This document shows positions 2,321-63,574 of a stretch of 64,000 nt of DNA, piece after piece. A program made the translations under genes and the position numbers. The notes below the pieces were generated by a model. It was given only the letters and a program-made list of their open reading frames with translations. It did not search any database and was not told the DNA's origin. Source of the stretch: Moniliella sp. 'wahieum' (Eukaryota); assembly GCA_003971905.1 (NCBI GenBank), contig RSEE01000026.1:558001-622000 (forward strand), written 5' to 3'. The stretch's first letter is position 1, and each line of letters starts with the position of its first letter.

Positions 2321-4177
2321 GACATGGCGGGTGGGCGGGAGACGCCGGCGGTGGCGGTGGCGGTGGCGGTGGCGGCAGGGATGGATGGATGCGGGCGGAC
2401 AGAGCGAGGCAGGCCGAGCGAGGCTGCAGACGGCGATGCATGCGGTGAATGGTGAATGTTGAGCCTGGCGGGTGGGCACGGGGGCACACTGGCTGCTCGC
2501 TGGCTGGGTCTGATCTGCGGTCCGTCGCAGCCTGTCGCAGCCACAAAGCGACCATCGCTGATCGATCGCATGCATGACATGTGACGCTGCCATCGCAGAT
2601 GCCCCCGCAGGCTGTGCTCGTGCCCAGCGCCCATACGCGCGCACGCCCGTAGGGTTGGGCATTTCGTCACGCGTCTGTAGTCACTAGTCACTGGTCCTAG
2701 TCACTAGTTGTGCATGATGCATGAGTCACACTCGGCAATCACATACCCGTCACCGGCCTTCCGCCTGCGCCTGGCCGCCTCGTCCGACGGGCCATCCCAC
2801 TCCTTCCCCAACAGCAGTCCGCCTCGACCATTGCATACCAGCGCCCAGCCCACCACCATACAAACACGAATCCCTGCCAGGGCACAGCACAGCAGCCGCA
2901 TGGTAGGAGCAACAGAACAACTTGTCCCGTAAAAAAAAGATGCACTGCAGGCACTACTGAACTACTACCGGACACTCTTTGCTGCACCTCTCTCCCTGTG
3001 GGCATTGATGGGGGTCAGAGGGTGTGCCTCAGTACGTTCAGTGGGCTATAGTGGCAAAAATCTAATGCAGTAGATCGATGATTGATGATCGTCGATTGGC
3101 TTGTTGGTCGCTGCTGGCCCACCGAAACCAAAGCAGGCTAGTAGCTGTTCCTCTCAATCGAGAGAGGGCAAGTTCATCGTTCGGATGTGTCCGCCACTTC
3201 ATTCGTCGTATCCAACTAATGGCAGACGCCAGAGGGTCCTAATCTGTTGCTGGCGGATCCCTTGGCTTCCTAGAAGGGTTTGACGCGCGCCAACAACACA
3301 CACGTCGGATGAGCAGTCGGTTTAGACGCAGTGCTTCTTCGTCCCAGCCTTAGGCTCTGTCAATGATAAGGTCACACTGTATACACCTTATACCTTCACA
3401 ACCGTCTGAGAGTTCTGAATGCTGGATGCTGAAGAGATGCTGAGGGTCCAGCATGGGAATCACAAATGGAAGGTATACTGTGTAGATGAGGGAAAGGGTC
3501 GGGGCTTAGGAGGGCACCGTGTGGCCTGCCAGGCGAGATTAGTACTAGTAAGCAAACCAGATGGGCCTGTACATGTATTTTACACGGGGGTTTGTGTTCT
3601 TTTTGACGCATTATCATATTGGTTCCAAAGATGGAATACCTATACCACGCAGATCGAGGGGGCTGGGGGGGGGGGTATTGGGCACACGTTAAACACCCAA
3701 CCGCAGTCGTGTCGTGGGAAGTCAAAAGCGATATTCACCTCGGGAAGTAGACGCGCTGGTGCCGAGGGAAGACGGTTGTGGATGCCATTGCTGTGTGGGT
3801 GTCAACGTTGCCAACGGCGTCCATGTGGGCAGAACAGACGAGACGATGCTGGGGCGATGTGAGAGAGGGTATCATCATAGAGTGCTAGGCGTCCCTGGCT
3901 GCACTCTTCCCCATTGATCGGGGAGGGTGGCGCTGAGGCTCACTTGTGACATGTGGCATGTGAGCAGACAAGCGAGGTGCGGGGATTGCAATGTTCAACA
4001 CCCACTGGCCCCAGCCCAACCCTAATGCTGAATGCGCAGAGACCAACTGCGGGGGAGGAGCGACTGGCGACTGCCACTCACTTATCAGGGCGTCAGGGCG
4101 AGCGAGGCAGACCAACGGGTGTGTGGTTGGTGCGCACCACAAGGCTGAATGCTGCCAGTGAATGCTACTCGACGCTC

Positions 4178-4305
4178 TGGATGGCGATGGATGGATGGGA
4201 TGGATGGGATGGATGGATGGATGGTGAATGCGGGATGTTGGATGCGGGATGCTATGCTGGATGCTGGATGCTGAATGCTTGATGCTGAATGCTGAATGCT
4301 GGATG
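4178..4305. repeat. Compound microsatellite: (GGATG/GGAT)n followed by 7-mer (ATGCTGR)n
   Basis: Read directly; upstream of LCB2. Confidence 0.85.
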
Positions 4306-4483
4306 GGACGGGACGGGGGGACGGATGGGCTGCTGAAGCTGAGGATGGCAGGGACTGTCGTTGGGACGTGCACGTGAGGCCAGTGCGCGAGCGCTCTGTT
4401 TTGGCGCAGCGCCGCAGCAGAATCAAGCACCCACCACCCTCCGCCTATCTTCTTCCCTTCTCCCACCACCACCTCCTCTCGCC

Positions 4484-6485: not shown

Positions 6486-7077
6486 GCTGCAACCCTTCTA
6501 ACTCTGCACTACCCCTTCGAACCCATCTACCCCCTCCCTCCCCTCTTCCTCACGCCCTTCTCGGTACCTTGTCTTGTCTTTGGGCGGGGAGGACATCCCG
6601 CTTCGCTGCGACCAGATCCGCATCGCCTCCCCCAGGGTGTGGGGAGATGATGGTTCAAGGTTGAACAGGTAGCACTTTGCCGAGCCCACTGTTTAAACAC
6701 TTGGCAGCCCACATTCTGTTCCCCTGGTGGTTTTTTGTTTTGTTTCTTGACGCCCCTGTTTTTGACCTGACCTTGGAGAAAGCTTGGCTCTCCTGCCCTC
6801 CCTTCTCTCGCATTAAGCATTGCTCATGACCCCTGTCCTAATCTCTCCGCTACGTTCCTACCCAAGCCCCCTCCTCTCCTTTCCCCACAAGGCCTCGCCC
6901 ACAGTCCATGTCCAAGTCCATCTGAGCCCCAGATTCTCATACTACCCACAGCTTGATGTTGGAACAATACATATAACCTCACCCCCCGCGTGCGCGTCAC
7001 ATAGCATATGCACCTCCTGCCCATAAGCCAACCACGGTGCGTGGGTCCTCTTCTTGGCTGGCCGATTAGCCGAGTCA

Positions 7078-10933: not shown

Positions 10934-11130
10934 GTCGCTAGTCGCTAGTCGCTAGTCGCTAGTCGCTAGTCGCTAGTCGCTAGTCGCTAGTCGCTAGTCG
11001 CTAGTCGCTAGTCGCTAGTCGCTAGTCGCTAGTCGCTAGTCGCTAGTCGCTAGTCGCTAGTCGCTAGTCGCTAGTCGCTAGTCGTCGCTAGTCGCTAGTC
11101 GCTAGTCGCTAGTCGCTAGTCGCTAGTCGC
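10934..11130. repeat. Heptanucleotide microsatellite (GTCGCTA)n, about 27 copies with one 3-nt interruption
   Basis: Read directly. Confidence 0.98.
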
Positions 11131-11149
11131 TTGTTATTGAGGGAAGACC

Positions 11150-14120: not shown

Positions 14121-14200
14121 TGACAGGGCGTGGTGGCGGTGGTGGACTTGCATGGAGAGGTACGTTGAATGTGAGGGTGCGGCGGTCCAGCTTGGTGCGC

Positions 14201-21185: not shown

Positions 21186-21260
21186 TGTATGGTCCGCCGT
21201 TGGCTGTGGGTTGCTGGACATGGCTCCATTCCTCGATCGATAATCGATAACGGCGCATCC

Positions 21261-23613: not shown

Positions 23614-25544
23614 TCGTCTTGTTGCCCCTTTCTCATCAAGCTCATCGAGGTCATCTCAACCATCACTGGACAATGTGCGTTTGCTCATCTTCGTATCTAT
23701 TCCCTTGCTCCTTCTTTGCTTCCTTTTTGCATGATGGGAGCGCCACTCTATCGCTATACCAACACACACTTTCCTTCTACCTCGCTCCCCACTGTACTTT
23801 TTGACTTGGCGCCAGCCCAAATCATACGCACAATCGCAGTCCACTATATACGTCGTCTTGAAACCAAATGCGGGCACCACGACTTGTGGCTCACCACTTT
23901 GCCTTCACGCCTTGTCTGACGGCTGCTTTGCAGCTGACCCATAGGATCGCGAGTGCTCCCAAGTCGCACTTTAGAAGCTTCGTCTGCTTCGCTCTGTTAA
24001 CATCTATGCCAGTGCGATGGGGCTTAGACAGGAGGGGGTTACCAAAAAGGGGTCGATCAACAGTCAGCATCCTCGATCAGTGGGAATCCTTTATCCCACC
24101 TTCCATTCTGGTCCCTTCCCACCTTTCTTGGCCAACTCCTGATTGAGTATAATAATACAGGTACCCTCTCTCCACTTAGCTGCCTACCTCGTCCTCTAGC
24201 TTTCCATCCGCCCAGTCGCGCGAGCCTTCCTTCAGCGGCGTCGATTCCCCCTACCACAGCGTATCGCGTGGGTTCCGTTTACAGCTACGCCGACAGCCGC
24301 CCCTGTCCAGCTTCACCCCTGGTAGTATTTTCCCTCCACTGCACCTACCCGTCTCTAAGCCCCGGAGGATTCAGACACGGTACTACCCTCACGCCGGCGC
24401 ATAGGCAACCTTGCCAAGCGTGCGGCCGCCTCAGCTTCACGCCCAAAGGCTTCTCCTCGGCTCGGATCCACCAAATAGCCCAAGCCCGAACTACTGTGAG
24501 TCGTGTACCACACTCACATCTCCTCCTTGCTCCACCACTCCGCCTTGTGCCACGGTTACTCTTTGCACCACCGCTCCCCTTTTAAGGTAGTGGAGGGACG
24601 CGTCGACGCGACTCTTGTCATATGCCCGAAATTATTGGCGTAGCCAGCCCCCCCCCCTGTCACGTGCAGGTCGCCGAGCAGTAGGGTTGTTGGCGGATTT
24701 CTTTGCACCCTATATGGAAAGTAGAGATCCTTCTCAAGCTTCAAGCATGCCAGTGCGTGGTGACCGGTGAACGTAGTACTGAACGTACTGAACACGGTAA
24801 AGGGCCCATGAGTACTGTACTGAGTGCGCCTGGGATGAAGAGGCTTGAGGGTTGAAGCTTGAAGCTTGAAGTCAAGCTTGAAGCCAAGTTCAAGATGGAG
24901 GCTCTTAAAGCTATCTTTTGGGAGAAAGGCTTGAAGCTGTGGTCACTGACCACATGACCTGCATGACCGTACAGGTACTGAGCGCTGGGCCTTGACCTCA
25001 AGCCCTCAAGCTTCAAGCCTCAAAGCCTCAAGCTCCTCACCTCAAGCTTCAAGCCTCAGTCTAAGGCGCTGACGGCGCTGAGGCGCTGAGGCCTCACCAG
25101 TAGAGGAAGAGGGCAGTGGAGTGTGGGATTCCTTCGCCGCCACCCCCGTGTGGCGCCACGGACCGATGACCGCGGGGATCGGTGACCGTCACTCGCTCTT
25201 CCGCGTTGCTAGTTCTCGATCTCTATATCTGTTGCTAGTCACATGTCACATGCATCACAGTCACTGGCGCCGCTCTCGACCTGGGTCTTTCACGAGGTGC
25301 CCCATATGCCACAGCTACTGAATCTAAGCGGCTAGCGAGGGCCAAGTTTTCATGCTCGGACCCCCCACCCTTTGATCCTCCTGAAGGTGTTGTTGCAGCG
25401 GGCACAGCTCTGTCCACTAATATGGTAACGCGGAAGAACGCCGAGGCAGTCATGTATTCATGATGGATAGAAGATCGTACTAAGAAATGGGTACGCTCCG
25501 GTGCGGTATCTTGGGGATCTACTGCCTTCTTGTGGGTTTAACGT

Positions 25545-26398
25545 TTAACGTTTAGTGGGCAAATGGGCAGGCTCCGCCCGACTGGGACACGGCGCCCAGT
25601 GAGGGCAAGTGGTCGCCTTGGCAGCCTCTTCGCCTTCCAACGGTTCCACCTCCACGCCCCGCTCGCCCGCTTCGCGCACAATCTCATTGAAGATGGACAT
25701 GGGGTCGTACCAGATCTCGATGCTCTCGATTTGGAATTTGTCATTGACCTTGGCGACCATCAAGCCTTCGATGCTCAGGATCCCACCGTGCGCCTTGACC
25801 CGCACCATTTGGCCGTTATTGTTGCGGCCAGTGTAATCGTTCTTCATCACGCCCCAGTGCCTCCACTTGGCCGCGACGGTAGGTGGCCCCGAGTAGACCT
25901 CAGTCACTTCCCACACGAAGCTGGGGATGGTCCGCTTAAAGCTCTTGTGGGACGCTTCAAAATTGTTGTGCTTGGGGTCGTAAAACTCGCTCGATCCCAG
26001 CAGAGCATTGTACGTCCCAACGCTCAGCATGTCATTCCCTGAGATCTTCGGCCCGCCGTTCATGCTGAACGTGTACTTGCTCTGATCGACCGTGCGCCAG
26101 TCGCTCAGGTTGGACTTGTAGCTAGCCTCAATCTCCCAGTTCTTGACCAGGTTCGACACAAGGTCGGGCAACGACCCGGCTTCCCAGCTGGTCGTCTTGG
26201 CTGGGTACACAGAAACGCATGTGGTTAGTATACCGGAATAAGTGAGGTGGCATAGTAGACAAGTGGGGGGTACTAGGACATACACTGCTCAAAGTACTCG
26301 CGGCTCTTCTTGTAGCTGGGTACCATCTTGTGGCGCCATGTGACGCCCTCGTCCTTGAGGACAGCGTTGGGGTCGGTCATGTAGTCGGGCAGGGACAT
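25545..26398 (-). CDS. 'Pathogen-related protein' family (SnoaL/NTF2-like fold)
   Basis: 'PDYMTDPNAVLKD..V.WR', 'GSLPDLVSNLVKNWEIEASYK...DWRTVD', 'GTYNAL', 'F.WEV.EVYSGPP.VA.KWRHWG'. Intron 26201-26283 (GTATGT..TACTAAC..CAG); TATATATA near 26510. Confidence 0.85.
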
Positions 26399-27118
26399 GG
26401 CGGTAAAGTTGCTGGGGGAAGAGGAAATAGGGAGATGTGGGTGGGTAGAGAGAAGGTAGGCAGGGAAGAAGCACAGATGGTATAGAGGCAACCTACAGAA
26501 CGAGGGTGTCTATATATATACCCCTTCGGGTGAGAAGTGCGGCGGTTGATAATCGCTTTGTAATAAAGGCTAGCAAAAAGGGACCAGTGTCAGATGTGGG
26601 AGAAGGGCAGGATGCACCCTGCCGGAAGCACGCTCAGGCTGAGCGCTGATCGATGTCGATGATCGTTGACCGGGTGGCCAGGAGTCACTTCAGCGATGCA
26701 GTGGAGGGCCTCACGGCTGTGCGCTGTGACCCTCTCGTGCACTCATGTGGGAGAAGAAGGGTTTGTGGGCCTTCAAGCTTCCGAGAGGAAACAAGGGTGG
26801 CTGATACGCAACAACGTTGTTGGCGCGGTAGGGGTGTTACATGTTAGTCCTTAGGACCGCGCAGGTGGGCTGTGGGGCGGGCGGCGCTCTTGGCAACGCT
26901 TCGTAATTAATGGTTGGTGATCGGGCTAGGGTGGGCTAGGGCAGGCTAGTAGGGCCTATAGGACCCAGCCGGGGGAGTGTGGATGTAACATGCGGTGATT
27001 GGCTTTAGAAACGTCACGCGTCAAGCACGTCAGGATCCGCGGCTTAGATCGTGGTGTGGAAAAGGAAACCATGATGGTGTACTCCACATCGCTCAACGTT
27101 TCCAACGTCCAAAGCCAG

Positions 27119-27168
27119 TGAAGCTTGAAGCTTGAAGCTTGAAGCTTGAAGCTTGAAGCTCGAAGCTA
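27119..27168. repeat. (AAGCTTG)n tandem array, 5 perfect plus 2 degenerate units
   Basis: Read directly; an oppositely oriented (CTTCAAG)3 array lies at 27350-27374. Confidence 0.95.
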
Positions 27169-27870
27169 GCGACTGAGATCACTGACTACTAAAGTCACTA
27201 GTCACACTAGCTGGTAACGTTGCTAGCTCTCTACTGATTATTACTCTGGAGGCCCTGAGGCTCAGGTCTGAGGAGGCCGGAGATAGCCGGTAGAAGGCGC
27301 TGAGTGGTCGCATAAATCTGCGATTATTCATCTTTTTTCAATCTTCGGGCTTCAAGCTTCAAGCTTCAAGCTTCTCGTCAACTTCCCATCGGCTTCATCG
27401 TTCCTGCAAGCTTCATCGATCATCGAACATCTTGCTCATACGATCGGTCATCGTCGGAACCATTAATCGGAGCGACACCGCATCAGACATTTGCAACGAA
27501 ACCCCGAAAAGAGGGGATCATCGATCAGCGCTGCTCAGCTACGTGTTATCGGCCCCCGCCCAGCCGGCGCTGGGCACGTTCCGAGTGGAGGCGTGTGGTG
27601 ACAAGTGGCTGTGGCAGAGCCCCCACAGGCGGTGCTGGGTGGTGGCATGGTGTCACCGGCAGCCCCGTTTCGCGTTGTGGGACGGACAACACAAGCCACG
27701 GACACACGCCTGCACGCGCACGTGGAGTATTCCATGCCATGTACCATGTCCCCGGCGTCCAAGCCAGTTGTCCAACCGACTAATCATAATCACCCCCGCG
27801 CGGTGGGGGTACCATGGCGGCCAAACGTCCAAAACCCGCGGACCGGCAAAGCCCTGGATTGCAAAGCCCT

Positions 27871-27920
27871 GGTAAGCCAGGGCAAGCCAGGGCAAGCCAG
27901 ATCAAGCCAGGGCAAGCCCC
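27871..27920. repeat. 10-bp tandem repeat (GGCAAGCCAG)x5, degenerate
   Basis: Read directly. Confidence 0.85.
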
Positions 27921-28403
27921 AAAGCCCAACACGGCCCACCTGCCCCACCGCCATTTCGGATCATCGATCATCGATCACATGTACAAGTAAATTTTCCCGG
28001 GTGCTACGTACACGGTACACGCCCTACAGCGCCACACAGGACCTGAGACATGTGGCCACCCTCCCAACTCCGCCAGTTGCGTCTTTTCCTCGCCTGCCAC
28101 ACTATCTGCACCCTGTCATGGCCACCCTGTCCCGCCTTCTCTACATACTAAGTAAGTCCTACGGGCAGCGCTGAGCGCCTGAGCGCTCACATGTTACAGC
28201 GCTCGCTCAGCGTGGTGCAGCTGGGTTTCACGGGTGGTGCGCACTGGAGGACGACGGCTACCGCGGGGGGGAGTGTTCCTATGCGCTGCCGAAGCAACGT
28301 TGTCTTCCGCGGTCTGTTCTCTCTCCGATTTGCTCTCTCAGGCGCTCAACGTTGTGACGTTGACGTTGAGGCCGTAAGGCCGAAGCTCAACGTTGAGTTC
28401 AAC

Positions 28404-28462
28404 CTTGAAGCTTGAAGCTTGAAGCTTGAAGCTTGAAGCTTGAAGCTTGAAGCTTGAAGCTT
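28404..28462. repeat. (CTTGAAG)8 tandem array
   Basis: Read directly; related arrays at 24853, 25006, 29793, 30275, 30468 and 30502. Confidence 0.97.
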
Positions 28463-31099
28463 TAATTGAGTGAGATGAGCCTGAGAGCGTTTAACGTTTA
28501 ACGTTCGACGCAACGTTCAGGCTGAACGTTGAACTCAACATGCAAAGGACCGTGTTGCGACCCTGCCAGTTGCGGCCTCTAGTCTCCGATGCTTAGCGCC
28601 TTTTGACACCGAGGCTCAGTAACTGAGTCGACTATCAACTCCTCAGGTTCAGCGCTGATTAATGATTAGTCAGGATGACATTGTAAGACCGAAGGAACCC
28701 AAGGGGTTGGGCGATGAACCTCTGGAAATGTAGAGCAATGCAATCGCGGTGGTGGTGGTTGGGTCTAAGCCTTAGGCCTTATGCCACACCTAGAGGAGGC
28801 AGGGGTTCAAACAAGCCTGAGTATACACGGGAGGCTTCGGAGGTCAAATGAGGAGCAAAAGGGGTGATAAGGCGCCTTGACCTATGTACGGGGCCGCGGG
28901 TCCCAACAGACATATAGCAGCACCGACCAGGCCGATCAGGTCCTCACGTCCTCAGACCCCTCAGGACGTTAGAGGTGGCCAGAATGTCGGAGCTCAAGCT
29001 CTCAAGCCCTCAAGGCCTCAAACCTTGTAAACGTTACAAGTAACTAGCAAAGCTAGTAACTATTAACGTTACTATATAGTTACTCTTTTAATTCCCTGAC
29101 GATTCCGGAGCGTCGTGCCGAGCGTCGAGCAAGACACTGCCTTTTACATGTTACACGTTACGCGTTTTACGCGTTACATGTTGCAGCGCACAACAGGAAC
29201 AGAAAAGGGTTGCGTGCTGGATCAGCAACAGCTTCCATATGCTCTCTGTACCGGGCATACTAACAGGGCGTACCTTTTGTCCTTGTATTTACGAGCTTTG
29301 CTCAGCGCTCACTCTCAGACCGTGCATTACATGCACGGTAGGAGCTACGCGTTATGATTATGCGGCCCCTCCGGGGCTCTCTCCATCGCATTCCCACCAC
29401 AACAGTTCATCACATTCATCGACATCGACCATATCGATCATCGATCATCATATACCCTGTACTAACGTTCAGTCGGCACCGGAAGCCCGAGTGCCTGATC
29501 GATGGCCTTCGATGGCTCACTAAGTACTCACCAGTTACTAGTTAGCGCTTAGCGCTTAGCGTCGACCACTCCCTCTATCTCTCGACACCATAGTAGTGCT
29601 TGAAATTGGCGGTAATCTGGTCAGGGCAATGCCCTCTTCTACACTATGGCTTTTGATACACGTTTTTCACGGAGCGATTAACGTCGATCACAATGCCCGG
29701 TCACGCGGTCACGCGTCACGGTGACCCGTGCCGGTCAGGACGACAAGTCAACCATATCAGAAAGAGCTCCGCTTAGATCTCAGAAGAACTCATGAAGCTT
29801 GAAGAGCTTGAAGCTTGAAGCTTGACGCTTGAAGCTTGAAAAGACTTTGGGGCTTACCAGTGGCTTGACCGATCTTGCCGTCCTCAAACAAGCCTCATGC
29901 ACCACCTTTTTTACGCCGCATCGCATTCCACCATCTCTCACACGTGTGAATCTCAACCTTACCATGGATTCCCCGTATCTCACCATCCCACACCTGAGCG
30001 TCTGACCTTCCTTAGGAACTCAGGCAGTCAGGCACTCAGGCACTCAGGCTCCACAAGCCTCACCGGCACCACGCGTTCGGGCCTCAGGCCCTGAGGCTTC
30101 AGGCTTCCCCATAGGCCTTCTTATCGGGCTCATATCTCGGAACGTACCTGCACGGAACGGACTGTGGCCATGGAGCAATATACGGTCTGTTTGTTGGCGA
30201 GATGCACATCACACACTCACCCACTTTTGCCGTCGGCACGATCTGAAGAGGATCTGAAGCTTTTGGAGCTCTTGCTTGAAGCTTGAAGCTTGAAGGGAGC
30301 CCGAAGGCATGAGAGGCTCTTCTTTTGAGGCTTCAGGTTTTCAGGCCTCAGGATCAATGATACGCTGCGAGCGGCGAACGTCACCAGGTTGATCAGGTTC
30401 TTCCATCGAACGTTCAACGTCGTTCAACGAGAATATTCCCGCGTCTGTGCGTTTTCACCCTTCACTTTCAAGCTTTTCAAGCTTCAAGCTGCATAAAGCT
30501 AAAGCTTGAAGCTTGAAGCTTGAAGTACAAGTAGCGTACGTGCCGCTCGATTCCTTTTCAAGCCGGTGACCAAGTCGCCTATCTCTTCGTTCACTTGAAC
30601 CTTCTGTCCATAGATGCCATGGTTAACAAGCCCTTATTCTGAGATCTGAAGTCTGAAGTCTGAAGCTTCATCTGAAGCCTGAACATGAACATTGAACGGC
30701 GGTGAACCCGGTGAGCGGTTCGAACGATGAGTATACGTTTGAGCCTACTATAGGCCGCGCTCAGCTACGCGCGACCAGCAGCATCTCAGTATTCACACTC
30801 CACACAATAGTTGCGTCGGGCCGCATCCTGTACTGACCTCTTTCTCGCGAGCTTGCTGAGGTGCCTACGTTTCTTCCACTATCACAGCGTCCGCGGCGTT
30901 TCTATACACACTTTGGACCATAATACCCTCCACCCTACTTCTCAATATTTTCCCGGGCTATGCGCCGGCGGGACTGAAAGAGAGCTCTCGAGGTGGCGAA
31001 CTTTCGCCCCCCTTAAGAGCTTAGCCCAAATGCGCCAAAATGCTTAGCTGTTGATTGGGTACGTGTTTGTAGGCTCTCTAACCGGCTGGCTGGATGGGG

Positions 31100-33430: not shown

Positions 33431-33909
33431 GGCGGGAGGTGGTTGGGGAGGGGTCCGAGCCAAGCCGCCGATTCAGAGCAGGAAGGAGGCAGCGACGGGG
33501 TGGCCAACTCACAGCCCCCGCGGCGGCTAACCCTAGAGGCGGTTGCGTGCGTCGTGGGGGCACCTGGCCTGTGCGCCGCCGCGCGGAGAAGCTCGGCCAT
33601 GTATATCGACGCCCAGTTCAGTTCATATTTCATTTCCGCATTGCGCATGCGTGCTCGCTCGCCCTGGCCGCACGTGACGCGTGACCCGTGATTAATGATT
33701 AATGATTCCGCTCGGGGCGCAGGCGGCGAGTGTGGGGCATTTGCCCGGCGCACCCGGCTGTAGCACCCCCGCACGGACCGCGTAACGCACGCGAGCTTGC
33801 AACAGAGGACGCAATCACTAGCAAGACCCCCCGGCCCTCCGGTCCTCCTGCCCCCCCCCACTCCTCCTTCTCCCCCTTCATGCACCTCCAGCCCACCTTG
33901 CGCCAAGCC

Positions 33910-35357: not shown

Positions 35358-37251
35358 ATGTCGCTCGGCCAGTGCGTTGTCTGCCACACGCCGCCGCCAA
35401 GTACAAATGCCCGCTTTGTGGGGCATCAGGAGCGACGTGCAGCGTGTCCTGCAGTCGCTCTCATAAGGATGGCCACCACGGCTCCAGCGCCACCCAGGCC
35501 GCCGGGAGCACGGGCTCTGTTCTCATCTTTTCCTCAGGTCGCATCCGCCGCTTTGGCCGATGCCCATCCCTCGTCCGTGTCGTCCATATCGTCCACGTTG
35601 CCCAAGTTGGGCGAGCAGGAGCTGCTACAGGACTATGTGTTCCTGAGCCAAATGACCCGACACGTCACCTCGGTCGGGCGCGAGCTGGCGCAGGCACCCT
35701 GGGCGCGCGAAGGCGTGGAGAAGAGTGCCCTGGTCACGCATGCCGGCCCCGCTGCCGCGGCGGAACTGGCACTGCAACAGCGCGAACGGGAACAAAGGAT
35801 GGCTCAGCGAGGCGGCCATGGCGGCCGCGGTCGTGGTGGCCGAGGAGGCGGGTCCGGAACGAGTGCCGTCCCGTCGCGCGTGCAAGCCCGACGAGACTTT
35901 TATGCGAAACAGGCTCGGTACCTCCGTGTCCCCCTCTTGCTCCTACCGCTTGGCATGGAGCAGGCGATGAAGAACCGATCGGGATGGGTGAGAAAGTATG
36001 TGGCCGGTTTGGGTTTGAGTTCATGTGTGGGAGGCATGGTAGTGCTGACCCTGTTCTTTTTGTGTCTGATTTCTTTATTATCGCAGTACGATGCAGATGG
36101 AGTACACGATTCAAATTAGCCTGCCCGGACGCGGTTCCGACGCGCGCGACACAATTTTCGTCCATCATCAACCCCGGATACACTCCCTCTTGCTCTCCTT
36201 CTCGACAAGTTGGAGCGCCAGAGCAGGCCAGGCTCCACTGGCGCCACTCCTCACTCCTCTTCTCCCTCTGAAGCCCAAGCCGGCGGTGGTGGGAAACCAA
36301 GAAAACGCAAACGCAAAGCACCGGACGACACTGCACCAGCCCCGGACATCCCCGCCGCGTCGGAAGCCACGACTGCGCCACGTATCTGGACCGTGACTCG
36401 CACTGTCCTCCTGGACCTTCTCACCCGCCTCGCTCAAGCGTGCGATACGCATCGAACCCCCGCGCAGGCCCAGGCGCGCGCACACAAGCTCTTGCCCACC
36501 CTCCTTTGCCCTCCGGCTGCAACGTCCAATCCCACCTCAGCACCCTCCCCCGAGTCAGACACGGTCTGTGTCAGCCTTGCATCTGTGTCCAGGAGACTGG
36601 CCCTTCTTCTGCCCCTGGCCAAGGTGGCGCTGCGCAACGAGAGTACGACCAAGTACGTCGAGTGGTACCAGCGCCAGCTGGCTTCCGGTCAGGTGGAGCG
36701 CTACGATCCTACCAAACCGGCGGCTGACGACGCATGCAATGCATCCAACGCATCCAATGCCCATTCGTCCACGCCAGCACCCGTTTCGGCACCTCGTTCT
36801 CCTCGGCGCTGCTCAGCAGCTTAGCTGCCCAACTGGGCACCGCGCCTGTCCCGGCCGCCGGGGCGGGCCGCGCCGGCGTGTCGCCAGCCCCGCAGAAGGA
36901 GAAGGACCCCGAACCGTCTCGCCGCGCACGTTCCTCCGTCTTCCTGCGCGGCGCGGGGTGCAGCAGGCTCTGCAGGGCATCCCGCCCGGGTGGGGCATGG
37001 TCGAGTACCCGGCGCTGGAGCTGTGGCTGGCAGACGAACTGCCAGCACACGTCCATGAGTGGCTTCGCCCGCCAGGGCAGGCCGAGGCAGCCTCGTCGGA
37101 GAGCTCGATGGAGGAAGAAGAGAAGGAGGCGGCGGCGGAGGTGGAGGTGGAGGTGGAGGTGGCGCCGGAGCCAGAGCCTCCCACAGCCGCGCCCTCGCTC
37201 CCACTGGGACTGGGACTCGGGGCGTATGGGTCCGACTCGGAAGAGGAGTAA
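35358..37251 (+). CDS. BCD1: Box C/D snoRNP assembly factor Bcd1/ZNHIT6
   Basis: N-terminal zf-HIT 'CVVC....KYKCPLC....TCSVSCSRSHK', 'LLQDYVFL', 'LLLLPLGM....NRSGW', C-terminal 'VEYP.LELW' and 'LGAYGSDSEEE'. Intron about 35996-36086. Confidence 0.8.
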
Positions 37252-38106
37252 TTAAAGTAATTGAAAGGAATTCTTGCCACTGGTTGCGTAGTAGGCTGGG
37301 CCGCCGGATGCCGACGGCGTCGTGCCGGGGTCGGCCGGTCATCGTCATCGATCATCAATCATGGACCACGATGACGACCACGTCTTCAGCTGGTCATATG
37401 ACCAGCATGTCCCACACCGGCGCTTTCGTTCGTGTCCATGTCGTTGGGATGTCCTTACCAGCGTAGCCGCCCCCAGCGCACTCTGTGCTCAGGAGCAGCG
37501 CACCATTGCTCATTAGCTATCGAGTACGCAGGCCGAAGTGAGAAGTGCGAAGTGCGAAGTGCGAATGCTTTGCGTGTCCACGGCACTGACTGGGTTACTG
37601 ATTCCTCGATTCTCCGTCGCTTTGTGGATGTGACAGCATGTGACATGTGACGTGTGACAGGTGACAGGTCACATGACCGGCATGCCACCGTGCCAGCCAA
37701 CGGCTTGCTGGGTGGCATTGCCCCGCACTGCGCCATCACGTGTCACATGTCACGCATCATCGATCAATCATCAATGGAGATCACCGGTTTTGATCACCCG
37801 GCGCCGGTGACATCAGCGATGCCCCGCTCGGGGGAAGAAGTGAGTACGGAGCAGTGCCGATCATCCATGGCGGTGTCGATCGCTGAGGGGCAGACGCTGC
37901 GCAGCAGGGCTGCTGGGCCTCCGAAGAGAGGCGCCACGCTCAGCCGAGGCAGTGAAGCTTCAACTTCAACTTCAAGCTCCAAGTGCAGACCAGGAGGCTC
38001 AACCTCAGGCACAACACCTCCGCCGCCGTTGCGCCCCCGCGTCCTCTGCTCCGCCTGCTCCGTCCCCCTCCCCACCACCACCACCACCACCACCACCGCC
38101 GCTGCC

Positions 38107-39264: not shown

Positions 39265-40974
39265 TCTCATCGTTCGGATCGGCTTTGCCATGCGCAGACT
39301 CGCGCTCTTTCTCTTCCATTCTTCATTTCCTCATCTCTCCTCCACCCTGGATCACGGAGCGCTTGCTCTTTTCGCACTCCTTTTCCCTTCCTTGCCACAA
39401 CCCACCTCTTTGTCGTGGCAGTTTCCCTTTTTTCTCTTTCTCTTTCTCTCTTACCGCCTGCGGGTGTCCGGGTCCCCTTTGTCCTTCCTTGGTCCGTCCG
39501 GGGTTTCCTTTGCTCTACCTCCCAAAGGGGGCTACGCACAGGGCCCCAACTGTTACCCTTTTCCTGCGTTCGACGGTACAGCCAGCACCTTCTGTTTGTG
39601 TACTCGCCTGCTGGCTTGGCTTTTGTCTTGTCCCCTCTCGGTCTGAGCACTCATTTCCCCTTTCTTCTCCCATGCACTACCGCGTGTATTCCCCCCACCC
39701 CCCCCACCCCACCTAGCTCTCCGTGCGCACCTCAATCGCATTGACGTGGGTTGGTGTTTTGTCCTCCTCCTTCTGCGGCCAGAGGGGAGCGGAAACAAAA
39801 GACTGGACCTGCTTGCGCTTCTCCCGCCTCTTCTCACTCTAAGCTATGCACCATCTTGCAACGGACCCTCTACCCCTTGTCGGGTGGCAGAGGCAACTAC
39901 CAAACCGGCACGAACCACCAGACGGCCACGCCACGCATCCTGTATGTGTATCACAGGCAGGACGCCTCGATGCCTCGATGCCTCGATGATCGATGACGCT
40001 AGCAGCGACCTAGGGAGCATACGTTGCCTCCGATCTCATTTGCTCCATGTGCAAAACGGAATGCAGATGGGGGGTAGTTACGGTGCCTTTGTCGTTCATA
40101 GGCCAGGCGTGATCTGAGAGGCAGTGGGGGAACGTGGCCCAGATCGGGGCGGGGAAGGGTGCGGGGCGCGTGGGGGTGGTGGCGCACGGTGGTGGCGCTC
40201 CGTGGCGTGTGATGCATGATGTGACAGAGTTCTGGCCAGGAAGGCAGGGGCGGCCATTACGCGTTACATGTTACAAGGTACGAGAGGGCAATAGATAGAC
40301 CCAGATCCACAGAGGGCGTCGAGAGATGCTTACCGGTTACCACAACACAGATGGCGCCCGCGGCCATCTTGTCGCACGCTATCGACATATTTGTCCACAT
40401 TGCCTCGCTGACCGGTGCCGGTCGGCGGCTAGATGCTGGTCCGCACGAGGTGCCACTCGGGTCAAAGGCTGCTAGCAGCCTCCTCAGGCCTGAGCCTCAG
40501 GCCTCATCGACCTCATCATTGTCTGGCGGGCAAGAGATGACATCGCGCGGCTCCGTACCCAGAAAGCAACGGGCGAGCGAAGATGAGTGCCGGCTGACCG
40601 TGCTGGCCATCAACGGCCATGGCCCAAAGGACGCTTTATATGGCACACACCTCGGCAAAACGCTCGGCCGTCGCCGAAAGAGAATGCTGGCAGATATGTA
40701 CTAGCTACGGCAGGCATCCAAGATCTCTCTATCAGGTGGTGGGCCGCTCGGTGCTGCGATTGGCGTGGGGCAGCAGGAGCTGACATCCCCGCGTAGGTGG
40801 GCCTAAGAAATAGGTTTCGTAGGGTCAAGTCTATCGAGAAGAAGGAGGCGAAGGCAGCCAAAATGAAGGAAGAGCAGAACTCGTTGTAGGTCCATATCAT
40901 AGATCCCACAGCAAAAAAAACAGCTCAACGGGGCTGCCAAAAGCGCGTCATAGGGGTAGGGGGGTGGCTAGAGG

Positions 40975-43558: not shown

Positions 43559-44349
43559 TCAGTACATCTCCAACGACATGCCCTGCAGCCCAGCAATAAC
43601 ACGACACAGACGGAAAACAGGTTAGCGCTCCCACTCTCCACGGCAGCCAAGGCGAGGCGAGGCGGGAAGAACATCAAACATCGAACATCGAACATCGAAC
43701 ATCAAACATCGATCGGGACTCACATCATGGATCTCATCTACCACCACGTGCCCCGCACACCAACGTCAACCCCAAAACACGCGCCTGGTCAGTCATCCCA
43801 TCGCATCGATCTGCCGTTCCCACCTTCCACCCCAAGCAAGAGGTGGCGGGGCAGCGGCCAGGAGGGGGGGGGGGTCACTCACAGTCGGCCAACGTGATGT
43901 GGTCTTTAAAGATTTGGTGCCACTTCTTGAGTTGAATCTAGATGCACACATACGCACACACACACAGACCATGCACACCAGGGCCATCGAGATCGAGGGG
44001 GGCAGGCGGTCAGCCAACGCTGGTTCCTTCCCGCTTCGCGCTACGTCGCGGTGCCAAGGAGAAAGGGGGGAAAGGGGCGCAGGTGAACAGGACGTACACG
44101 TTCAGGAATGGTGCCGGTCTGGGCGGCAATCAGCTTCTTCACGTCCCCAATCGTATCTTCGCTGTCGCATTTGACCACGACTGGACGCAGGGAAGGGGCG
44201 AGGGGCGGGAGGGGGAGGGCAGGACGGGTTAGGCACACAGACCAAGGCAGTGCGGCAGGGAGGAAAGCAAGCAAGCAAGCAAGAAAGGAATGAGAACACG
44301 TACCCTTGCGTCCCAGGCGGTCGTTGGCAATGATCTCCATAAACGTCAT
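43559..44349 (-). CDS. HUB1: Ubiquitin-like protein Hub1/UBL5 (5 exons)
   Basis: Splicing four GT..AG introns gives [73 protein letters not shown]. Confidence 0.93.
43670..43712. repeat. Heptamer repeat (AACATCR)x6 inside HUB1 intron 4
   Basis: Read directly. Confidence 0.85.
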
Positions 44350-50170: not shown

Positions 50171-50788
50171 GTGGTGATGTGGGGCGTGCTGCGGCAAAGC
50201 AGGCGGCAAAGAGGCGGCAGCCCTGTGGCGGTGCTCTGTGCGTGTGGCGCAGTGTGGGCGTGGGGGTGCCATGTGACATGTGACATGTGATGCAAGGGGT
50301 GGGACATGCATGACATGTGACATGTGACATGCGAGGGACGAACGATGATCGATGATTCATCCAGAGACCTACACGCACTGCACGAGTCCACCGCATGCAT
50401 CCACCACTGCGTCGGGGGAGGGCGGGCTGGTGCGGCGGGTGCGGCTGGGGCACCTGGGGGCACAGGCGTGACGCGTGAGATCTGAGAGGCGCACTCGCCG
50501 CACTGGCCCACACTGGCGCCGCGCCAGCGCACCGTGCTTCCGCGGCGGAACGGCAGCGGCGACGGGTGAGCGGGCAAGGGTGGCGGGGTGGGGGACGCGT
50601 GATGGGTGACGGGTGACGCGTGACGTCAAAAGCCGCACGACGACCACCACTTGGAAACAACCACCCCGGCCTTGCGGGGCGTCCACAGCATCTCGGCGCG
50701 CGTCTCCAGCACCACCGCCACCACCCCCGCCGCCCTCCTTTCCCATCGCCACCGCCTCCCGCCCTCCTCCTCCCAGCCCCGTCCCCGT

Positions 50789-60162: not shown

Positions 60163-60494
60163 GGTGGTGGTGGTGGTGTGATTGTGGTGGTGGCTGCGGT
60201 GGATTAACGATCCGGATGTGATGGGCTGCGCGTGTCTCAGCCCATCCCCTGCGGATCAGCTTCTTACGTTGCAATTTCAACCCAAGCGCCCCACCACACC
60301 GCGCCCATGCCCCGCCTTCCGCATTTCGCATTTCAACATTCAACTCATTCAACACATGTCCCTCCTCCCTCGCGAGCACCGCCTACACAACTACACAAAC
60401 TACACACCCAACTTCCTATTCCATCGCGTCCATTCATAGCCGGCCAGATACCAACGCAACCGAGACCCGCCGCCTGTTGCGGTGCTCACCTCAC

Positions 60495-62668
60495 TTACGC
60501 CGAGTACGGAGGCGGCGCGCCAGCGCCCGACGCGCTGGGACCCGGGGCGCCAGAGGGTACGCCCCATCGCCCTGGGCAGCGGCCACCGCCGCATCTTGTT
60601 GCCGCTCGCGCTCTTTCGCGTCAATTTCGGCTTGTCGACGAAGCGCCTCCACGTCCTGTGGTGCGGTCGCCGAGCCATACAGCGCTCCACCCGCCGAAGC
60701 GCCCGGCGAAGCGGCCAGCGGACCGTATCCTGCGCCGGAGCCGGAGCCCGGTGGAAGCAGCACCCGTAACCCGACGCGCCGTACCCAGACGTGCCGTACC
60801 CGGAAGGAGCCGAGGTCGGGGCCGGCTGGCCGAGGGAACCGCTCGTCGGTCCCCCAGGCCCGACGACAGGCGCCCCCGTTTCCGCCACCGTCGGCGTGGG
60901 GGCAGCCCCGGCGGCCTGACCCTGCTGAGTGGGAGCAGTAGCGGGAGGGTAGCCGCCCGGAGCAGGGGACGTGACCGCCGGAGTGGGGGCCAGATTCAGA
61001 CGAGTAGCGAACTCATTGTCAACCGACTGGTGAGGTGGGGCAGAAGTAGGAGCGTTCTGCTGCGGGCCTCCATACCCTGCGCAGAAACCGGGGTCGACTG
61101 CGGCTGGTAGCCTTGCGACGGAGTGGACTGCGAAGGGTAGCCCTGAGCGGGAGTGGACTGCGGGGGGTAGCCTTGCGACGGAGTCGGCTGGGGCTGGTAA
61201 CCTTGCGAAGGGGTTGACTGGGGCTGGTAGCCTTGCGAAGGGGTCGACTGGGGCTGGTAACCTTGCGAAGGGGTCGACTGGGGCGGGTAGCCTTGCGACG
61301 GGTAGCCCTGGGCCGGGGAACCTAGGTTAGGTTGGGGGGGAGACTGCGGTGGGCCAGCCGGGGAGGTGGGGCCCGTGGAGCCCGTGCGCCCCGACCCCGA
61401 CCCCAGTTCCAGGTCCAGTTCCAGGTCCAGTTGCCGTCCCAGCTGCAACGCCAGCGCCCGCCACAGCCGAAGCGGCACTCAATTCGGCAGCATGAGTTAC
61501 GCCAAACGAGGCGGATTGGGGGTTGCTGAGCGTAGTTGTGTCGCTGGTAGCGGCAGTAGCAGAGGAAGGGGTGGATTCGATGCGGGTCGGGGGCGCGTTA
61601 AGGCAGCCCGAGGGGACGTGGGGAAGAGTGGTGGTGTCGACCTGCAGTTGATCCAGCGCTGGCTTGATGGCCGAGCGGATCTCGGCCACGCGCACCGCGC
61701 CAGACCAGGCGGGTGTCTTGGTCCGGTCCTTCGGTGTCCGGTCTGCGGGAACAGGAGCGGGTCCGAGTGCTCCCCCTCGGGTCCGATAGGAATCTGCTGC
61801 ACCACCAGTTTCTGGTACCGTCCCAGAGCCAGCTTTTCACCCAGCTCAATCAGCGCATCGGTTTGGGCCAGCCAGTTGGTGCGCAGAACGGCACGCTTGC
61901 CATATGCTGCGGCCACTCCTTGGCAGCCGCTTCGCTCTCGAGCTTCTGTAGCTCGGTCTTGATCTCGTTGAAGCGCTGCGCCTGAGGCGAGGTGGGGCGG
62001 GAGGAGGCTTCGGGCCCAAGCTCGTTAAGCTGGCGAGCGAGGTTGGTCCGCCGCTGGCGGGCATGCAGAATGTCATCCGACTCGAGCGTTTGCTGCAATG
62101 GCGTGCTTCTGGGTTTTGCGAGCCTCTTCGAGCGTCTTCACATGGGCCTGGTACAGGTCGCCCTGCAACGCCGAGTGAACGCCAAGCGATCCAGAACGTC
62201 TACCAGCACCTCGTCACCCACACCATCGAAGCGAGAAGCAGCATTGTGGGATTGACCGAGCTCGTACGAGGCTTTGGCCAGCGAATGACACTCGCGGAAC
62301 AGCGCCTCGTAATCAATGTCGACGCCCTTGAGCGCGCTGTTGTACACGAAGAACGGCCGGTTGAGGTTGAGACGGGGATCGAACTGGGCCAACCCCTGGC
62401 GGATGAGGTGGGGGAAGTTGGTGGAGTACGTGCCAGCGGCCAGCGAGCCGAGGTTGTTGTGCTGGGCGTTTTGCTGGTACGGACGCGGCGGGGGCGGGGG
62501 GGCGGCGCCGGGGGCAGCGCCGGGGTTGGGCTGCTGCTGTTGATGCTGCTGCTGCGGCGGCGGCGGCTGCTGCTGGCTGGGAGCGGCAAAGCCGTACTGC
62601 TGCGCCGCCTGCTGCGCCGCCTGCTGCGCCTTCTCCTTGGCGCGCTCGAACTTGTCGAAGAAGCTCAT
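60495..62668 (-). CDS. Pil1/Lsp1-like (eisosome) BAR-domain protein with low-complexity termini
   Basis: Helical core 'DEVLVDVLDRLAF', 'KRAVLRTNWLAQTDALIELGEKLAL..YQKLVVQQIP' resembles Pil1-family helices as I recall them. Q/P-rich N-terminus, repeat-rich C-terminus. Confidence 0.55.
61088..61312 (-). repeat. 30-bp coding tandem repeat, about 7 x QGYQPQSTPS
   Basis: Seen in both the DNA and the ORF 60996..61478 translation. Confidence 0.93.
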
Positions 62669-63574
62669 GAGGGGGGCTGAAACGGCGGGGGGGGGGGAGG
62701 GCAACAGCGCGGGGAGGCGGAGGCGGGACGAGGGGGCGAGGGACGGGGAGGTTAAGCCTTAAGAGCCGTCGGCCGCCCTCGCCCCGCTCGGCTGCTCTGA
62801 CCCCGTGCCCGGATCTGGGCGGGCCGACGCACGTCTCCGCAGCCGCAGCCAGGGGGAGGCAGAGGGGAGTGTGCCGCACTGCGCACGGACACAGGCACTA
62901 TGCCAGTGTGCCGCGCCAGTGTGCCTCCGGTGGCCCACCGGCACGCGTCATGTATCGATGATCCCCACGCGGTACCTTTTGGGCCTTAGATCCCCTTGAA
63001 CGTACCTTGAACGTTGAACGAAGCAACCGCAGGGGATCTGCGCTGGGCTTCCACGCAGGCCCTGGGCGTTCGTACAGACGCAGTCCAAGCAACCCGACCA
63101 CATTGTGCTGGATTCAGACCCACCGCTCCCTCTGTCGCTCCCTGCCGCTCCGTGGAGACGCTGGCCCAACGCCCTCCGCGGCAGGCGGCGCATCCTCTGT
63201 TGACGCATCCCGACGCCTGTGTTTTCGCCAGGTAGCAGGGTGAGCTCGACATGTACTTGTCTCCACGAACCCCCTGTTCGTATTCGTCTGCGCCCTGCTC
63301 CTTGCCTCACCCAATCGGTCCTCTGCACCCTCTCCCCCCGTCGAAAAAAGCAGTGCAGGCAATGCGTATACAACGACCGCAACCCTCCTTTTTGCCTTTG
63401 GGCTGATCCATGATCTGCATGATCAATCCGTCCACCGTCCCTATCGATGGTAACATGTAAGAAGTGTCATTCAACTTTAACTGCCCTCTCAGTGGCCTGC
63501 TCCTGCTCAATTCATTCCCTGGCGCTGTTGGTTTTCCGTCTCTATCTTCCCCCTTTCGCCTTCGTTTTACGGCT

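Follow-up and report, generated by a model that had tools for sequence, protein, structure and literature searches.

Location of the chains

The window, a stretch of 64,000 nucleotides analysed at its full length, carries many copies of a short motif in which two T-N-A triplets enclose a 4-bp palindrome and successive units follow one another in a phase of 7 bp. Listed chain by chain, 83 such in-phase chains lie between positions 2575 and 63460 and have no strand assigned. About half of them fall into a gene-poor hot zone with a GC content of 53–56% (24734..30670, strand likewise unassigned), and 42 of the 83 are located within the bins from 24001 to 32000, which are gene-poor and of lower GC. 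As a crude coding proxy in place of an annotation, we took any stop-to-stop ORF of 200 codons or more. Such long ORFs span 21.7% of the 83 chains compared with 61.2% of the window positions. By this proxy, the chains are depleted from long ORFs and often lie between genes.

Enrichment and specificity of the motif

Two hundred dinucleotide-preserving shuffles of the window sequence served as the null model. The window contains 114 TNA-pal4-TNA matches, compared with a shuffled mean of 6.33 ± 2.42 and a shuffle maximum of 14. These matches collapse into the 83 chains when an exact 7-bp phase is required, into 70 clusters with a gap of at most 21 and into 90 core events. TNA-flanked 4-bp cores that are not palindromic occurred 92 times (93.5 ± 9.8 in the shuffles), i.e. 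at chance level. The ratio of palindromic to non-palindromic cores was 1.24 for TNA flanks and 0.04–0.13 for the remaining 15 XNY flanks. The TNA-palindrome-TNA pattern is real and very strong, and the palindromic-core motif reported in the initial annotation was reproduced.

An excess was seen at a core length of 4 only, plus 11, which equals two units. Core lengths of 2, 3, 5, 6 and 8 between TNAs gave near-chance counts in the window, and TA-core-TA was not enriched there. The N was the same in both TNAs for 95 of the 114 matches. Directly adjoining triplets with the same N (TNATNA) were only weakly raised (42 vs 29). TGA and TCA are the predominant forms; N, mostly G or C, follows the TNA background of the window.

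Fourteen of the 16 possible palindromes are present as cores, and each of the 14 example sites previously cited for them was found at its position. AATT and TATA are absent from the window, for which the flank dinucleotides predict 4.8 and 2.5 sites respectively. Core usage is not what flank frequencies alone would predict (chi-square p = 3e-7): AGCT is over-represented 3.0-fold and CATG 2.3-fold.

Dependence of the core on the flank

The initial annotation had described the core as any palindrome. The palindromic nature of the core was confirmed, but its sequence is not free: it is set by the neighbouring flank dinucleotide, and the core reproduces the two bases immediately outside one TNA, once inverted and once direct. 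From a sequence abTNAcd two forms are found, ab-TNA-b'a'ab-TNA-cd (left copy) and ab-TNA-cdd'c'-TNA-cd (right copy). The left-copy form was present 34 times (0.34 expected) and the right-copy form 32 times (0.41 expected), each approximately 80–100 times chance, and array interiors contributed a further 30 matches (0.02 expected). Palindromic cores without a flank match numbered just 18, compared with 5.4 expected. In 70 of the 83 chains the period extends into a flank by 2 bp or more; 62 of these 70 are one-sided, and the continuation into the flanks showed no polarity relative to N among the chains of the window.

A model with a left-flank run followed by a right-flank run describes 45 of 77 generalised chains without mismatch (6.9 with random flanks). 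The two-core chain cg-TGA-cgcg-TGA-gatc-TGA-ga (50469..50485, forward strand) has 0 mismatches to this model; its left core is a copy of the left flank cg and its right core of the right flank ga, pointing to an ancestor cgTGAga. The two-core chain ag-TTA-ctag-TTA-gcgc-TTA-gcgc-TTA-gc (29535..29558, forward strand) would go back to agTTAgc. The chain cg-TGA-cgcg-TGA-cccg-TGA-ttaa-TGA-ttaa-TGA-tt (33675..33705, forward strand) combines a left run with a right run and has one mismatch to the model, a single point change of cgcg to cccg.

Selected cis-regulatory sites, such as tandem TGA half-sites of a dimeric factor or stop-codon-rich insulators, would suit the non-coding location, often between genes, and the predominance of TGA and TCA. 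However, N usage merely follows background TNA frequencies and the cores vary freely with the flank, while a binding protein needs no copy of the neighbouring two bases; the 16-mers described below are also unexplained by such selection, which we regard as highly improbable. An assembly or sequencing artefact is scarcely credible: the chains are depleted from long ORFs as judged by the ORF proxy, a strict flank-dependent rule is obeyed, and a small number of independent metagenome contigs (L062, L034, L100 and L091) follow the same rule with other cores. We know of no sequencing-platform error that writes 7-bp inverted-plus-direct copies.

Joint classes and target duplication

The dominant joint classes are P2+del2 (n = 17) and del2+P2 (n = 21), which make up 38 unambiguous P2/del2 events. 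Minor joints were intact+P2 (n = 3), P2+intact (n = 2), P2+P1 (n = 1), P2+del1 (n = 3) and P1+intact (n = 2), each with approximately 0.0–0.1 expected. Intact+intact joints are also present as a minor class; exact non-palindromic 7-bp duplications numbered 11. The five minor classes with P-nucleotides can arise from nothing other than a 7-bp duplication.

Both 7-mers are complete in rare variants, five 16-mers and one 17-mer, all on the forward strand, and the 16-mers contain exactly the two predicted extra bases. In CATGACC-TG-CATGACC (24953..24968; approximately 0.0 expected) the intact 7-bp copies are separated by two P-nucleotides, the complement of CA. CTTGAAG-AG-CTTGAAG (29798..29813) and CATGATC-TG-CATGATC (63409..63424) are likewise of the intact+P2 type, and AGTAATT-AA-AGTAATT (37247..37262) and CCTCATC-GA-CCTCATC (40502..40517) of the P2+intact type. 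The 17-mer GTTCAAC-GT-C-GTTCAAC (30412..30428) has intact 7-mers, two P-nucleotides from the left flank and one from the right. The two complete 7-mers with their two predicted extra bases show the event to be the duplication of a 7-bp target, with TNA at its centre, accompanied by hairpin-type P-nucleotides.

In an unbiased scan covering target-site duplication (TSD) lengths of 4–11 and P lengths of 1–3, the top absolute excess was obtained for a TSD of 7 with two P-nucleotides (86 vs 10.5), and 56 of these 86 were centred on TNA; a TSD length of 8 gave 11 vs 4.0. The 38 reconstructed ancestral targets contain information at T(−1) and A(+1) only. The earlier proposal of a recurrent break-and-repair process that writes a 7-bp duplication and a short inverted copy of local sequence is borne out by the 34 left and 32 right copies and by the 16-mers. 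The cut at a fixed distance from TNA that had been part of this proposal gives way to a duplication centred on TNA, and Spo11 or topoisomerase cuts, also put forward, were discarded because they predict no 7-bp duplication with P-nucleotides.

Period-7 arrays

Exact period-7 arrays are 15-fold over-represented (56 vs 3.6 expected). They are quasi-palindromic, with foldable odd-palindromic units and one mismatch per unit, and 13 of the 56 are without any TNA. The homogeneous chain (TGA-agct) x5 (27119..27156, forward strand) has the odd palindrome CTTGAAG as its rotated unit, and (TGA-agct) x8 with TTA at its end (28406..28464, forward strand) is the longest conforming chain. An array of 28 copies of GTCGCTA (10934..11131, forward strand) differs by one A-to-G change from the conforming unit agTCAct and may represent a mutated footprint amplified by slippage. 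Similarly, a GAACATC array (43669..43712, forward strand) differs by a single change from the conforming unit gaTCAtc, from which it was presumably derived.

Slippage surely contributed to the long arrays, the x8 and x28 examples among them, and arrays were likely extended by it after the birth of the unit. (CNG)n repeats are hairpin-prone microsatellites, and the units described here resemble them in being odd-palindromic, in folding with one mismatch and in their probable expansion by slippage. Ordinary microsatellite dynamics would suppose that odd-palindrome heptamers form mismatched hairpins like CNG triplets and preferentially slip and expand, with no specific break, and the number and quasi-palindromic nature of the period-7 arrays are consistent with this. 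Unlike in (CNG)n, however, unit birth is TNA-specific and flank-templated. Slippage copies units and cannot write an inverted flank dinucleotide, as found in the 38 unambiguous P2/del2 events, and the 16- and 17-mers contain 2–3 extra P-nucleotides that slippage is unable to generate. Furthermore, no preference for T-N-A would be predicted over the more stable CNG/GNC centres, which are at chance, and only one of the 56 arrays is odd-palindromic with another centre (approximately 4 expected). Microsatellite dynamics by themselves are very unlikely. Plain slippage, in which new copies equal the unit whatever the flank or the unit sequence, does not agree with the inverted flank copies and the TNA specificity.

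Transposon excision as a probable source of the scars

The scars were probably left by the excision of a cut-and-paste DNA transposon, or of a family of such elements, that inserts at nnTNAnn and duplicates these 7 bp. The products are seen directly in the sequence, and from them we infer the steps of excision and the agent. After excision, each flank would end in a hairpin whose closure coincides exactly with the boundary of the element. A host nuclease would then nick each hairpin 2 nt 3′ of its tip, giving a 4-nt self-complementary 3′ overhang, cdd'c' at the left end and b'a'ab at the right end, next to a recessed 5′ end beginning at the T of TNA. One overhang would be ligated directly to the opposite recessed 5′ end while the other is lost, and the product would be ab-TNA-cdd'c'-TNA-cd or ab-TNA-b'a'ab-TNA-cd. 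The net result would be a gain of 7 bp, with a 4-bp palindromic core set by one flank and the same N in both TNAs. As each footprint remakes two TNA targets, repeat visits would lengthen the chain in phase, and since this growth starts from two original flanks, at most two core types per chain are expected. The 7-mers are quasi-palindromic, and their slippage would extend some arrays further. An insertion of 7 bp causes a frameshift, and this would account for footprints persisting mostly outside coding sequence.

In the sections of the papers cited here, hAT, Transib, MULE and RAG are described as forming flank hairpins that are opened by host enzymes (PMC5499845), and Ac/Ds footprints in a yeast as P-nucleotide insertions and short deletions (PMC5873905). 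For Artemis:DNA-PKcs, the main position of hairpin opening is +2, with 4-nt inverted-repeat 3′ overhangs as the dominant product (PMC2175297), and 7-bp TSDs are made by the basidiomycete hAT7 and Kyakuja elements (PMC12730594). In view of these reports, the previous statement that no described system has this signature was too strong. We found no description in the literature of such footprints accumulating this densely in a phased 7-bp pattern. A hairpin-forming transposase, one of the agents suggested in the initial annotation, is the best candidate on the basis of the flank-copy, P-nucleotide and TSD-scan results, and the interpretation given there is partly supported.

Comparison with known systems

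Generic features of flank-hairpin footprints are present, namely a flanking 7-bp direct repeat and P-nucleotides abutting the joint. As in the footprints of hAT (such as Ac/Ds), Transib and MULE elements, the target duplication lies on both sides of the joint (PMC5499845, PMC5873905, in the sections cited). An inverted flank copy at the joint with a small loss opposite is shared with these footprints and with V(D)J coding-joint P-nucleotides, and the 4-bp palindrome is identical to the 4-nt 3′ overhang that predominates after +2 hairpin opening (PMC2175297). In contrast to known flank-hairpin footprints, the TSD is 7 bp and not 8, 5 or 9, one joint type instead of dozens dominates, and the fixed footprints number approximately 1.4 per kb of genome and form phased chains. 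Here the palindromes have an even length and their centre falls exactly on the boundary, whereas those of Ac/Ds are centred on the complement of the element-adjacent base; a hAT of the Ac type, with its 8-bp TSD and odd palindromes, does not match. Moreover, 3-nt cores between TNAs in the window were odd-palindromic in 37 of 115 cases (expected fraction 0.25), which is no enrichment, so a classical Ac-like cleavage offset is not supported.

The basidiomycete cut-and-paste elements hAT7 (Pucciniales) and Kyakuja/KDZ (Laccaria) share the 7-bp duplication (PMC12730594), and hAT7 belongs to a superfamily with flank hairpins. The likeness is one of TSD length, the target motif of these elements not being stated in the text and supplement of that paper as available. 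Unlike in these cases, the window shows neither element nor transposase. Its fungus is not a rust; the closest named homologs are from Malassezia, at 49–51% identity.

Canonical Tc1/mariner footprints (TA, element-end bases, TA) resemble the scars in having a short, often palindromic insert between target copies. Their insert is constant and comes from the element ends, whereas the insert here is a flank copy with 14 different cores; a Tc1/mariner footprint was rejected on the chance level of TA-core-TA and on the variable, flank-matching cores. PIF/Harbinger and IS5-like elements make 3-bp TNA/TWA duplications and thus share the T-N-A target triplet. A PIF/Harbinger-type event was rejected because the flank dinucleotides are duplicated as well (7 bp in all) and a 3-bp duplication cannot supply flank-derived cores.

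Arguments against a mobile element

No filled site with nnTNAnn borders and terminal inverted repeats was detected in the window, where every match of the filled-site scan was an array paired with another array. None of the 200 ORFs of at least 130 codons in the window encodes a transposase Pfam domain, and the window is essentially without dispersed repeats. The approximately 90 events in 64 kb demand very many cycles of insertion and excision or a large share of slippage. Experimental hAT footprints in Candida albicans are much more varied, with 28 types among 128 events given in the cited part of PMC5873905; in the window minor classes exist, but one class dominates far beyond that series. 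The departure of core usage from flank frequencies and the 13 period-7 arrays free of TNA are further points against the footprint reading.

The same break geometry might arise without a mobile element if a host-encoded nuclease, e.g. a domesticated flank-hairpin transposase, acted at nnTNAnn, either by a 7-nt staggered cut or by capture and release of the site, with hairpin ends repaired as in the transposon model. This would agree with the failure to find element, transposase or dispersed repeats in 64 kb and with an outcome that is extreme for uniformity as well as density. On the other hand, a 7-bp direct duplication is the classical outcome of integration into a staggered target cut, and a single 64-kb window tells little of the whole genome. 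We know of no nuclease that, with no element inserted, yields hairpins together with a 7-bp duplication. We consider a host nuclease possible but rather unlikely. It is doubtful, too, that a domesticated flank-hairpin transposase repeatedly opens non-coding nnTNAnn sites and, by uniform +2 opening and ligation, writes 7-bp units, thereby providing promoters and UTRs with an inbuilt source of variation in length and sequence.

Implications

If the excision-footprint reading is true, this window alone contains approximately 90 natural repair joints that have become fixed and go back to one type of break, and thousands would be present in the entire genome. Together they would document in vivo, and on a large scale, how a non-model basidiomycete opens hairpins and joins ends, with near-invariant +2 opening and one-overhang ligation. 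Most intergenic short tandem repeats of this fungus would have been written by a locally invisible transposon. Since footprints regenerate their own targets, they would nucleate microsatellites, which would give period-7 repeats and promoter length variation a concrete origin. The flank-copy rule could also provide a computable detector of past activity of elements with a 7-bp TSD in other genomes. The rule can already be seen in a few contigs from metagenomes.

Palindromic 4-bp cores are enriched between TNA triplets

In the window, 114 TNA-N4-TNA matches with a palindromic core were found, compared with a mean of 6.33 ± 2.42 and a maximum of 14 in dinucleotide-preserving shuffles (n = 200). 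The initial annotation had estimated about 70 instances by eye; the enrichment is borne out and exceeds this estimate, and the 14 core sites it cited are all present. Non-palindromic cores remained at the shuffled level (92 versus 93.5 ± 9.8). The palindromic matches form 83 chains, that is, units in exact 7-bp phase, and collapse to 90 core events with 14 different cores. The excess was seen for T-N-A alone: the ratio of palindromic to non-palindromic cores was 1.24 for TNA and 0.04–0.13 for the other 15 flank types, and TA-core-TA showed no excess in the window. It was likewise limited to a core length of 4 bp, with lengths of 2, 3, 5, 6 and 8 near chance and a length of 11 corresponding to two units. 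The same N occurred on both sides in 95 of the 114 matches. Exact period-7 arrays numbered 56 versus 3.6 under a Markov null, and in 29 of these the unit is an odd palindrome with TNA at its centre, as are 2.8% of random 7-mers.

The proposal that the motifs lie mostly outside coding sequence was supported, with 21.7% of the 83 chains located under an ORF of 200 codons or more compared with 61.2% of window positions. This ORF span is a crude proxy for coding DNA used without annotation, since a self-trained codon model reached 30% of the window only and was too weak. Half of all chains are found in a gene-poor 8-kb stretch of lower GC (24000–32000, GC 53–56%) with few long ORFs, which may be an old donor site, a hotspot of local hopping or simply tolerant DNA. 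Between 24028 and 32445, a weak SnoaL-like 'pathogen-related protein' gene (25548–26288, minus strand) provides the sole ORFs of 130 codons or more that bear a domain.

The core is copied from one flank

The core had been described as any 4-bp palindrome regardless of its sequence. This freedom does not exist, as the core matches the neighbouring flank in most cases. With ab and cd denoting the two bases outside the left and right TNA, and b'a' and d'c' their inverted complements, cores equal to b'a'ab (left flank) were found 34 times (0.34 expected) and cores equal to cdd'c' (right flank) 32 times (0.41 expected). Matches to both flanks, which are array interiors, numbered 30 versus 0.02 expected, and 18 palindromic cores matched neither flank (5.4 expected). 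The period of 7 bp continues for at least 2 bp into the flank in 70 of the 83 chains, in 62 of these 70 on one side only, with left and right equally frequent for every N. The flank-matched counts indicate a single type of event, in which abTNAcd is converted to ab-TNA-b'a'ab-TNA-cd or to ab-TNA-cdd'c'-TNA-cd. Each event adds seven bases, five copied directly and two copied inverted. A 3-bp duplication of TNA with cores derived from element ends was rejected because the cores match the flanks, and snap-back or template-switch replication because it offers no route to the direct copy.

A probable 7-bp duplication at TNA targets

For a detailed characterization of the joints, we enumerated products of a 7-bp duplication in which each side has lost 0–2 bases or gained 1–3 P-nucleotides. 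Among unambiguous events with the same N, the two classes with two P-nucleotides on one side and two bases lost on the other lead with 17 and 21 cases, and 11 are exact 7-bp duplications. Six sequences contain two complete 7-mers with exactly the predicted inverted bases between them (CATGACC-TG-CATGACC, CTTGAAG-AG-CTTGAAG, CATGATC-TG-CATGATC, AGTAATT-AA-AGTAATT, CCTCATC-GA-CCTCATC and GTTCAAC-GT-C-GTTCAAC), where approximately 0.0 were expected per class. These joints are decisive, as neither a 3-bp nor a 5-bp duplication can yield them; a 5-bp duplication with two P-nucleotides is thus rejected by the 16-mers. In a scan of duplication lengths 4–11 and P lengths 1–3 that did not presuppose TNA, the biggest absolute excess was at length 7 (P = 2: 86 versus 10.5). 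Of these 86 matches, 56 are centred on TNA and the remainder is near the null level. In 12 TNA-N4-TNA matches the two Ns are complementary, giving perfect 10-bp palindromes such as TGA-ccgg-TCA, which may reflect longer P tracts or have arisen by chance. The TGA-ccgg-TCA at 5931–5940, a perfect 10–12 bp palindrome inside an aminotransferase-domain ORF, is probably one of about six chance matches and not a footprint.

Ancestral targets rebuilt from 38 perfectly fitting chains carry information at T(−1) and A(+1) only, and the usage of N (C 34, G 33, T 12, A 4) resembles that of background TNA sites. Core usage fits the flank dinucleotide frequencies loosely (Spearman 0.51, chi-square p = 3e-7): AGCT (3.0×) and CATG (2.3×) exceed expectation, while CCGG, TGCA and GTAC fall below it. 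This deviation points to a further preference for certain targets or to uneven amplification.

A model of break and repair

The sequence products described so far are observed, and from them we infer the following steps. The direct duplication would be the trace of integration into a target cut with a 7-nt stagger, and the inverted copy of break-adjacent bases that of an opened hairpin. In hAT, Transib, MULE and RAG systems the element is freed via a hairpin on the flanking DNA, which host enzymes open and end joining seals (PMC5499845). Ac/Ds footprints in Candida albicans show P-nucleotide insertions and short deletions (PMC5873905), and Artemis:DNA-PKcs nicks hairpins mostly 2 nt 3′ of the tip, with 4-nt inverted-repeat 3′ overhangs as the dominant product (PMC2175297). 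Here, the substrate would be abTNAcd/element/abTNAcd with flank hairpins opened at +2. This would leave cdd'c' as a top-strand 3′ overhang at the left end, where the bottom strand has its 5′ end at TN'A, and b'a'ab as a bottom-strand 3′ overhang at the right end, where the top strand has its 5′ end at TNA. Joined directly to the right 5′ end, the left overhang would give ab-TNA-cdd'c'-TNA-cd; joined to the 5′ end on the left, the right overhang would give ab-TNA-b'a'ab-TNA-cd. The unused overhang would become a flap. Opening at +2 with ligation of one overhang would explain, without extra assumptions, why the core is a 4-bp palindrome that depends on a single flank, why exactly two bases seem to be lost, why left and right products are equally numerous, why both TNAs share the same N and why the period is 7 bp.

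Whatever the breaking agent, the events are probably 7-bp target duplications at TNA repaired via opened hairpins, a grading that is our own estimate and not computed. The agent itself seems somewhat more likely to be a mobile element than not to be one, in which case the motifs would be excision footprints of a cut-and-paste transposon with a 7-bp target-site duplication (TSD) at nnTNAnn. Weighing against this transposon reading, no element was found in the window (see below), and the joints are far more uniform than those of experimental hAT excision in C. albicans, which gave 28 types in 128 events (PMC5873905). The loose fit of core usage (above) and the period-7 arrays without TNA and the number of visits required (both below) also count against it. 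Ac-type palindromes, which have the complement of the adjacent base at their centre, were not seen here. Since 3-nt cores are at chance, the Ac-type offset hairpin was rejected; cleavage would fall exactly at the boundary, and assignment to classical hAT finds no support.

Chains and arrays

If each footprint remakes two TNA targets, no more than two core types can occur in a chain that arose from a single abTNAcd, with b'a'ab towards the left and cdd'c' towards the right. Generalised chains, defined by a TNA every 7 bp and one or more palindromic cores, numbered 77; the two-core model holds without mismatch for 45 of them compared with 6.9 for random flanks, and with at most two letter mismatches for 63 compared with 34.9. 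Clear two-core chains are cg-TGA-cgcg-TGA-gatc-TGA-ga (50469) and ag-TTA-ctag-TTA-gcgc-TTA-gcgc-TTA-gc (29535); cg-TGA-cgcg-TGA-cccg-TGA-ttaa-TGA-ttaa-TGA-tt (33675) is equally clear with one point change. Nine chains fit poorly with at least four mismatches (e.g. 37736, 30640 and 28399), that at 28399 being lengthened by a chance neighbouring TNA.

The largest tandem repeat of the window, GTCGCTA ×28 (10934–11131), has a unit a single A-to-G step away from the conforming unit agTCAct and, from its sequence, looks like a mutated footprint that was later expanded by slippage. Slippage of quasi-palindromic units surely contributes to arrays, as in this case and in the ×8 array at 28406. Thirteen exact period-7 arrays lack any TNA, indicating that some other 7-bp duplication, or decay, is also at work.

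Occurrence in other sequences and comparison with known systems

A metagenome scan with the pattern (TGAAGCT)3 retrieved 121 loci (543 kb). Pooled, these showed a palindromic to non-palindromic ratio of 0.064 for non-AGCT cores, which equals chance, so that the grammar is not apparent in the set as a whole. Flank-matched non-AGCT events numbered 16 versus 6.1 ± 2.8; by the same measure the window holds 48 events per 64 kb, a density approximately 25-fold that of the metagenome loci. Only the contigs L062, L034, L100 and L091 looked positive, with GATC, CCGG, GGCC, GTAC, AATT and GCGC cores. Although retrieved via an AGCT array, they contain chains such as gc-TGA-gatc-TGA-gatc-TGA-ga, gg-TAA-ccgg-TAA-ccgg-TAA and gg-TCA-ggcc-TCA-ggcc-TCA. 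L062 (1–12021) has split helicase ORFs and looks eukaryotic; L073 is bacterial and its matches are therefore chance. The same process seems to be active in some other organisms, those of the four positive contigs. The higher density in the window and the few positive contigs indicate a strongly lineage-specific signature that is not unique to this assembly, and its presence outside the assembly argues against an artefact.

The individual ingredients are all known already, namely TSDs, hairpins on the flank, opening at +2, P-nucleotides and, among basidiomycetes, elements that make 7-bp TSDs. The latter include hAT7 of rust fungi and Kyakuja of Laccaria (PMC12730594), which match the present case in TSD length; Table S1 of that supplement lists no TSD sequences. 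A full-text literature search returned no paper on the TNA-palindrome-TNA grammar or on genome-wide fixed footprints in a fungus. Nor did it return footprints fixed at approximately 1.4 per kb, chaining in phase or dominating fungal intergenic tandem repeats, or an almost single-outcome repair. Work by Ladendorf and co-workers on Tc1 in Ustilago maydis (2003, Mol Genet Genomics) reportedly mentions footprint-like sequences in that genome.

Element search and gene content of the window

Approximately 90 events in 64 kb imply very many visits. No filled sites or intact elements were detected in the window by TSD plus terminal-inverted-repeat scans, a repeat search or self-BLAST, and none of its 200 stop-to-stop ORFs with 130 codons or more has a transposase Pfam domain. 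The window (64 kb, GC 60%) encodes intron-split genes for protein kinases, DHHC, SDR, aminotransferase, Hsp70, PDH E1, pyrophosphatase, RhoGEF/CNH and uL16 proteins. The closest named protein matches are 59–63% identical (Aspergillus, Vanrija, Trichosporon), and those to Malassezia 49–51%. We regard the source as a basidiomycete-like fungus with no near relative among the sequenced species searched.

The element searches yielded only array-against-array matches and three unrelated tandem repeats. These are 77–79 bp ×3 with two identical copies (63553–63785), 75 bp ×4 with 60–71% identity (47729–48032) and 30 bp ×7 within long ORFs (61060–61353), the last of which may encode a repetitive protein. 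Finally, an inverted 26-nt pair at two distant non-coding sites (3341–3366 and 44731–44756) matches at 25 of 26 positions with dissimilar flanks, which may point to a regulatory site or to a small RNA element.
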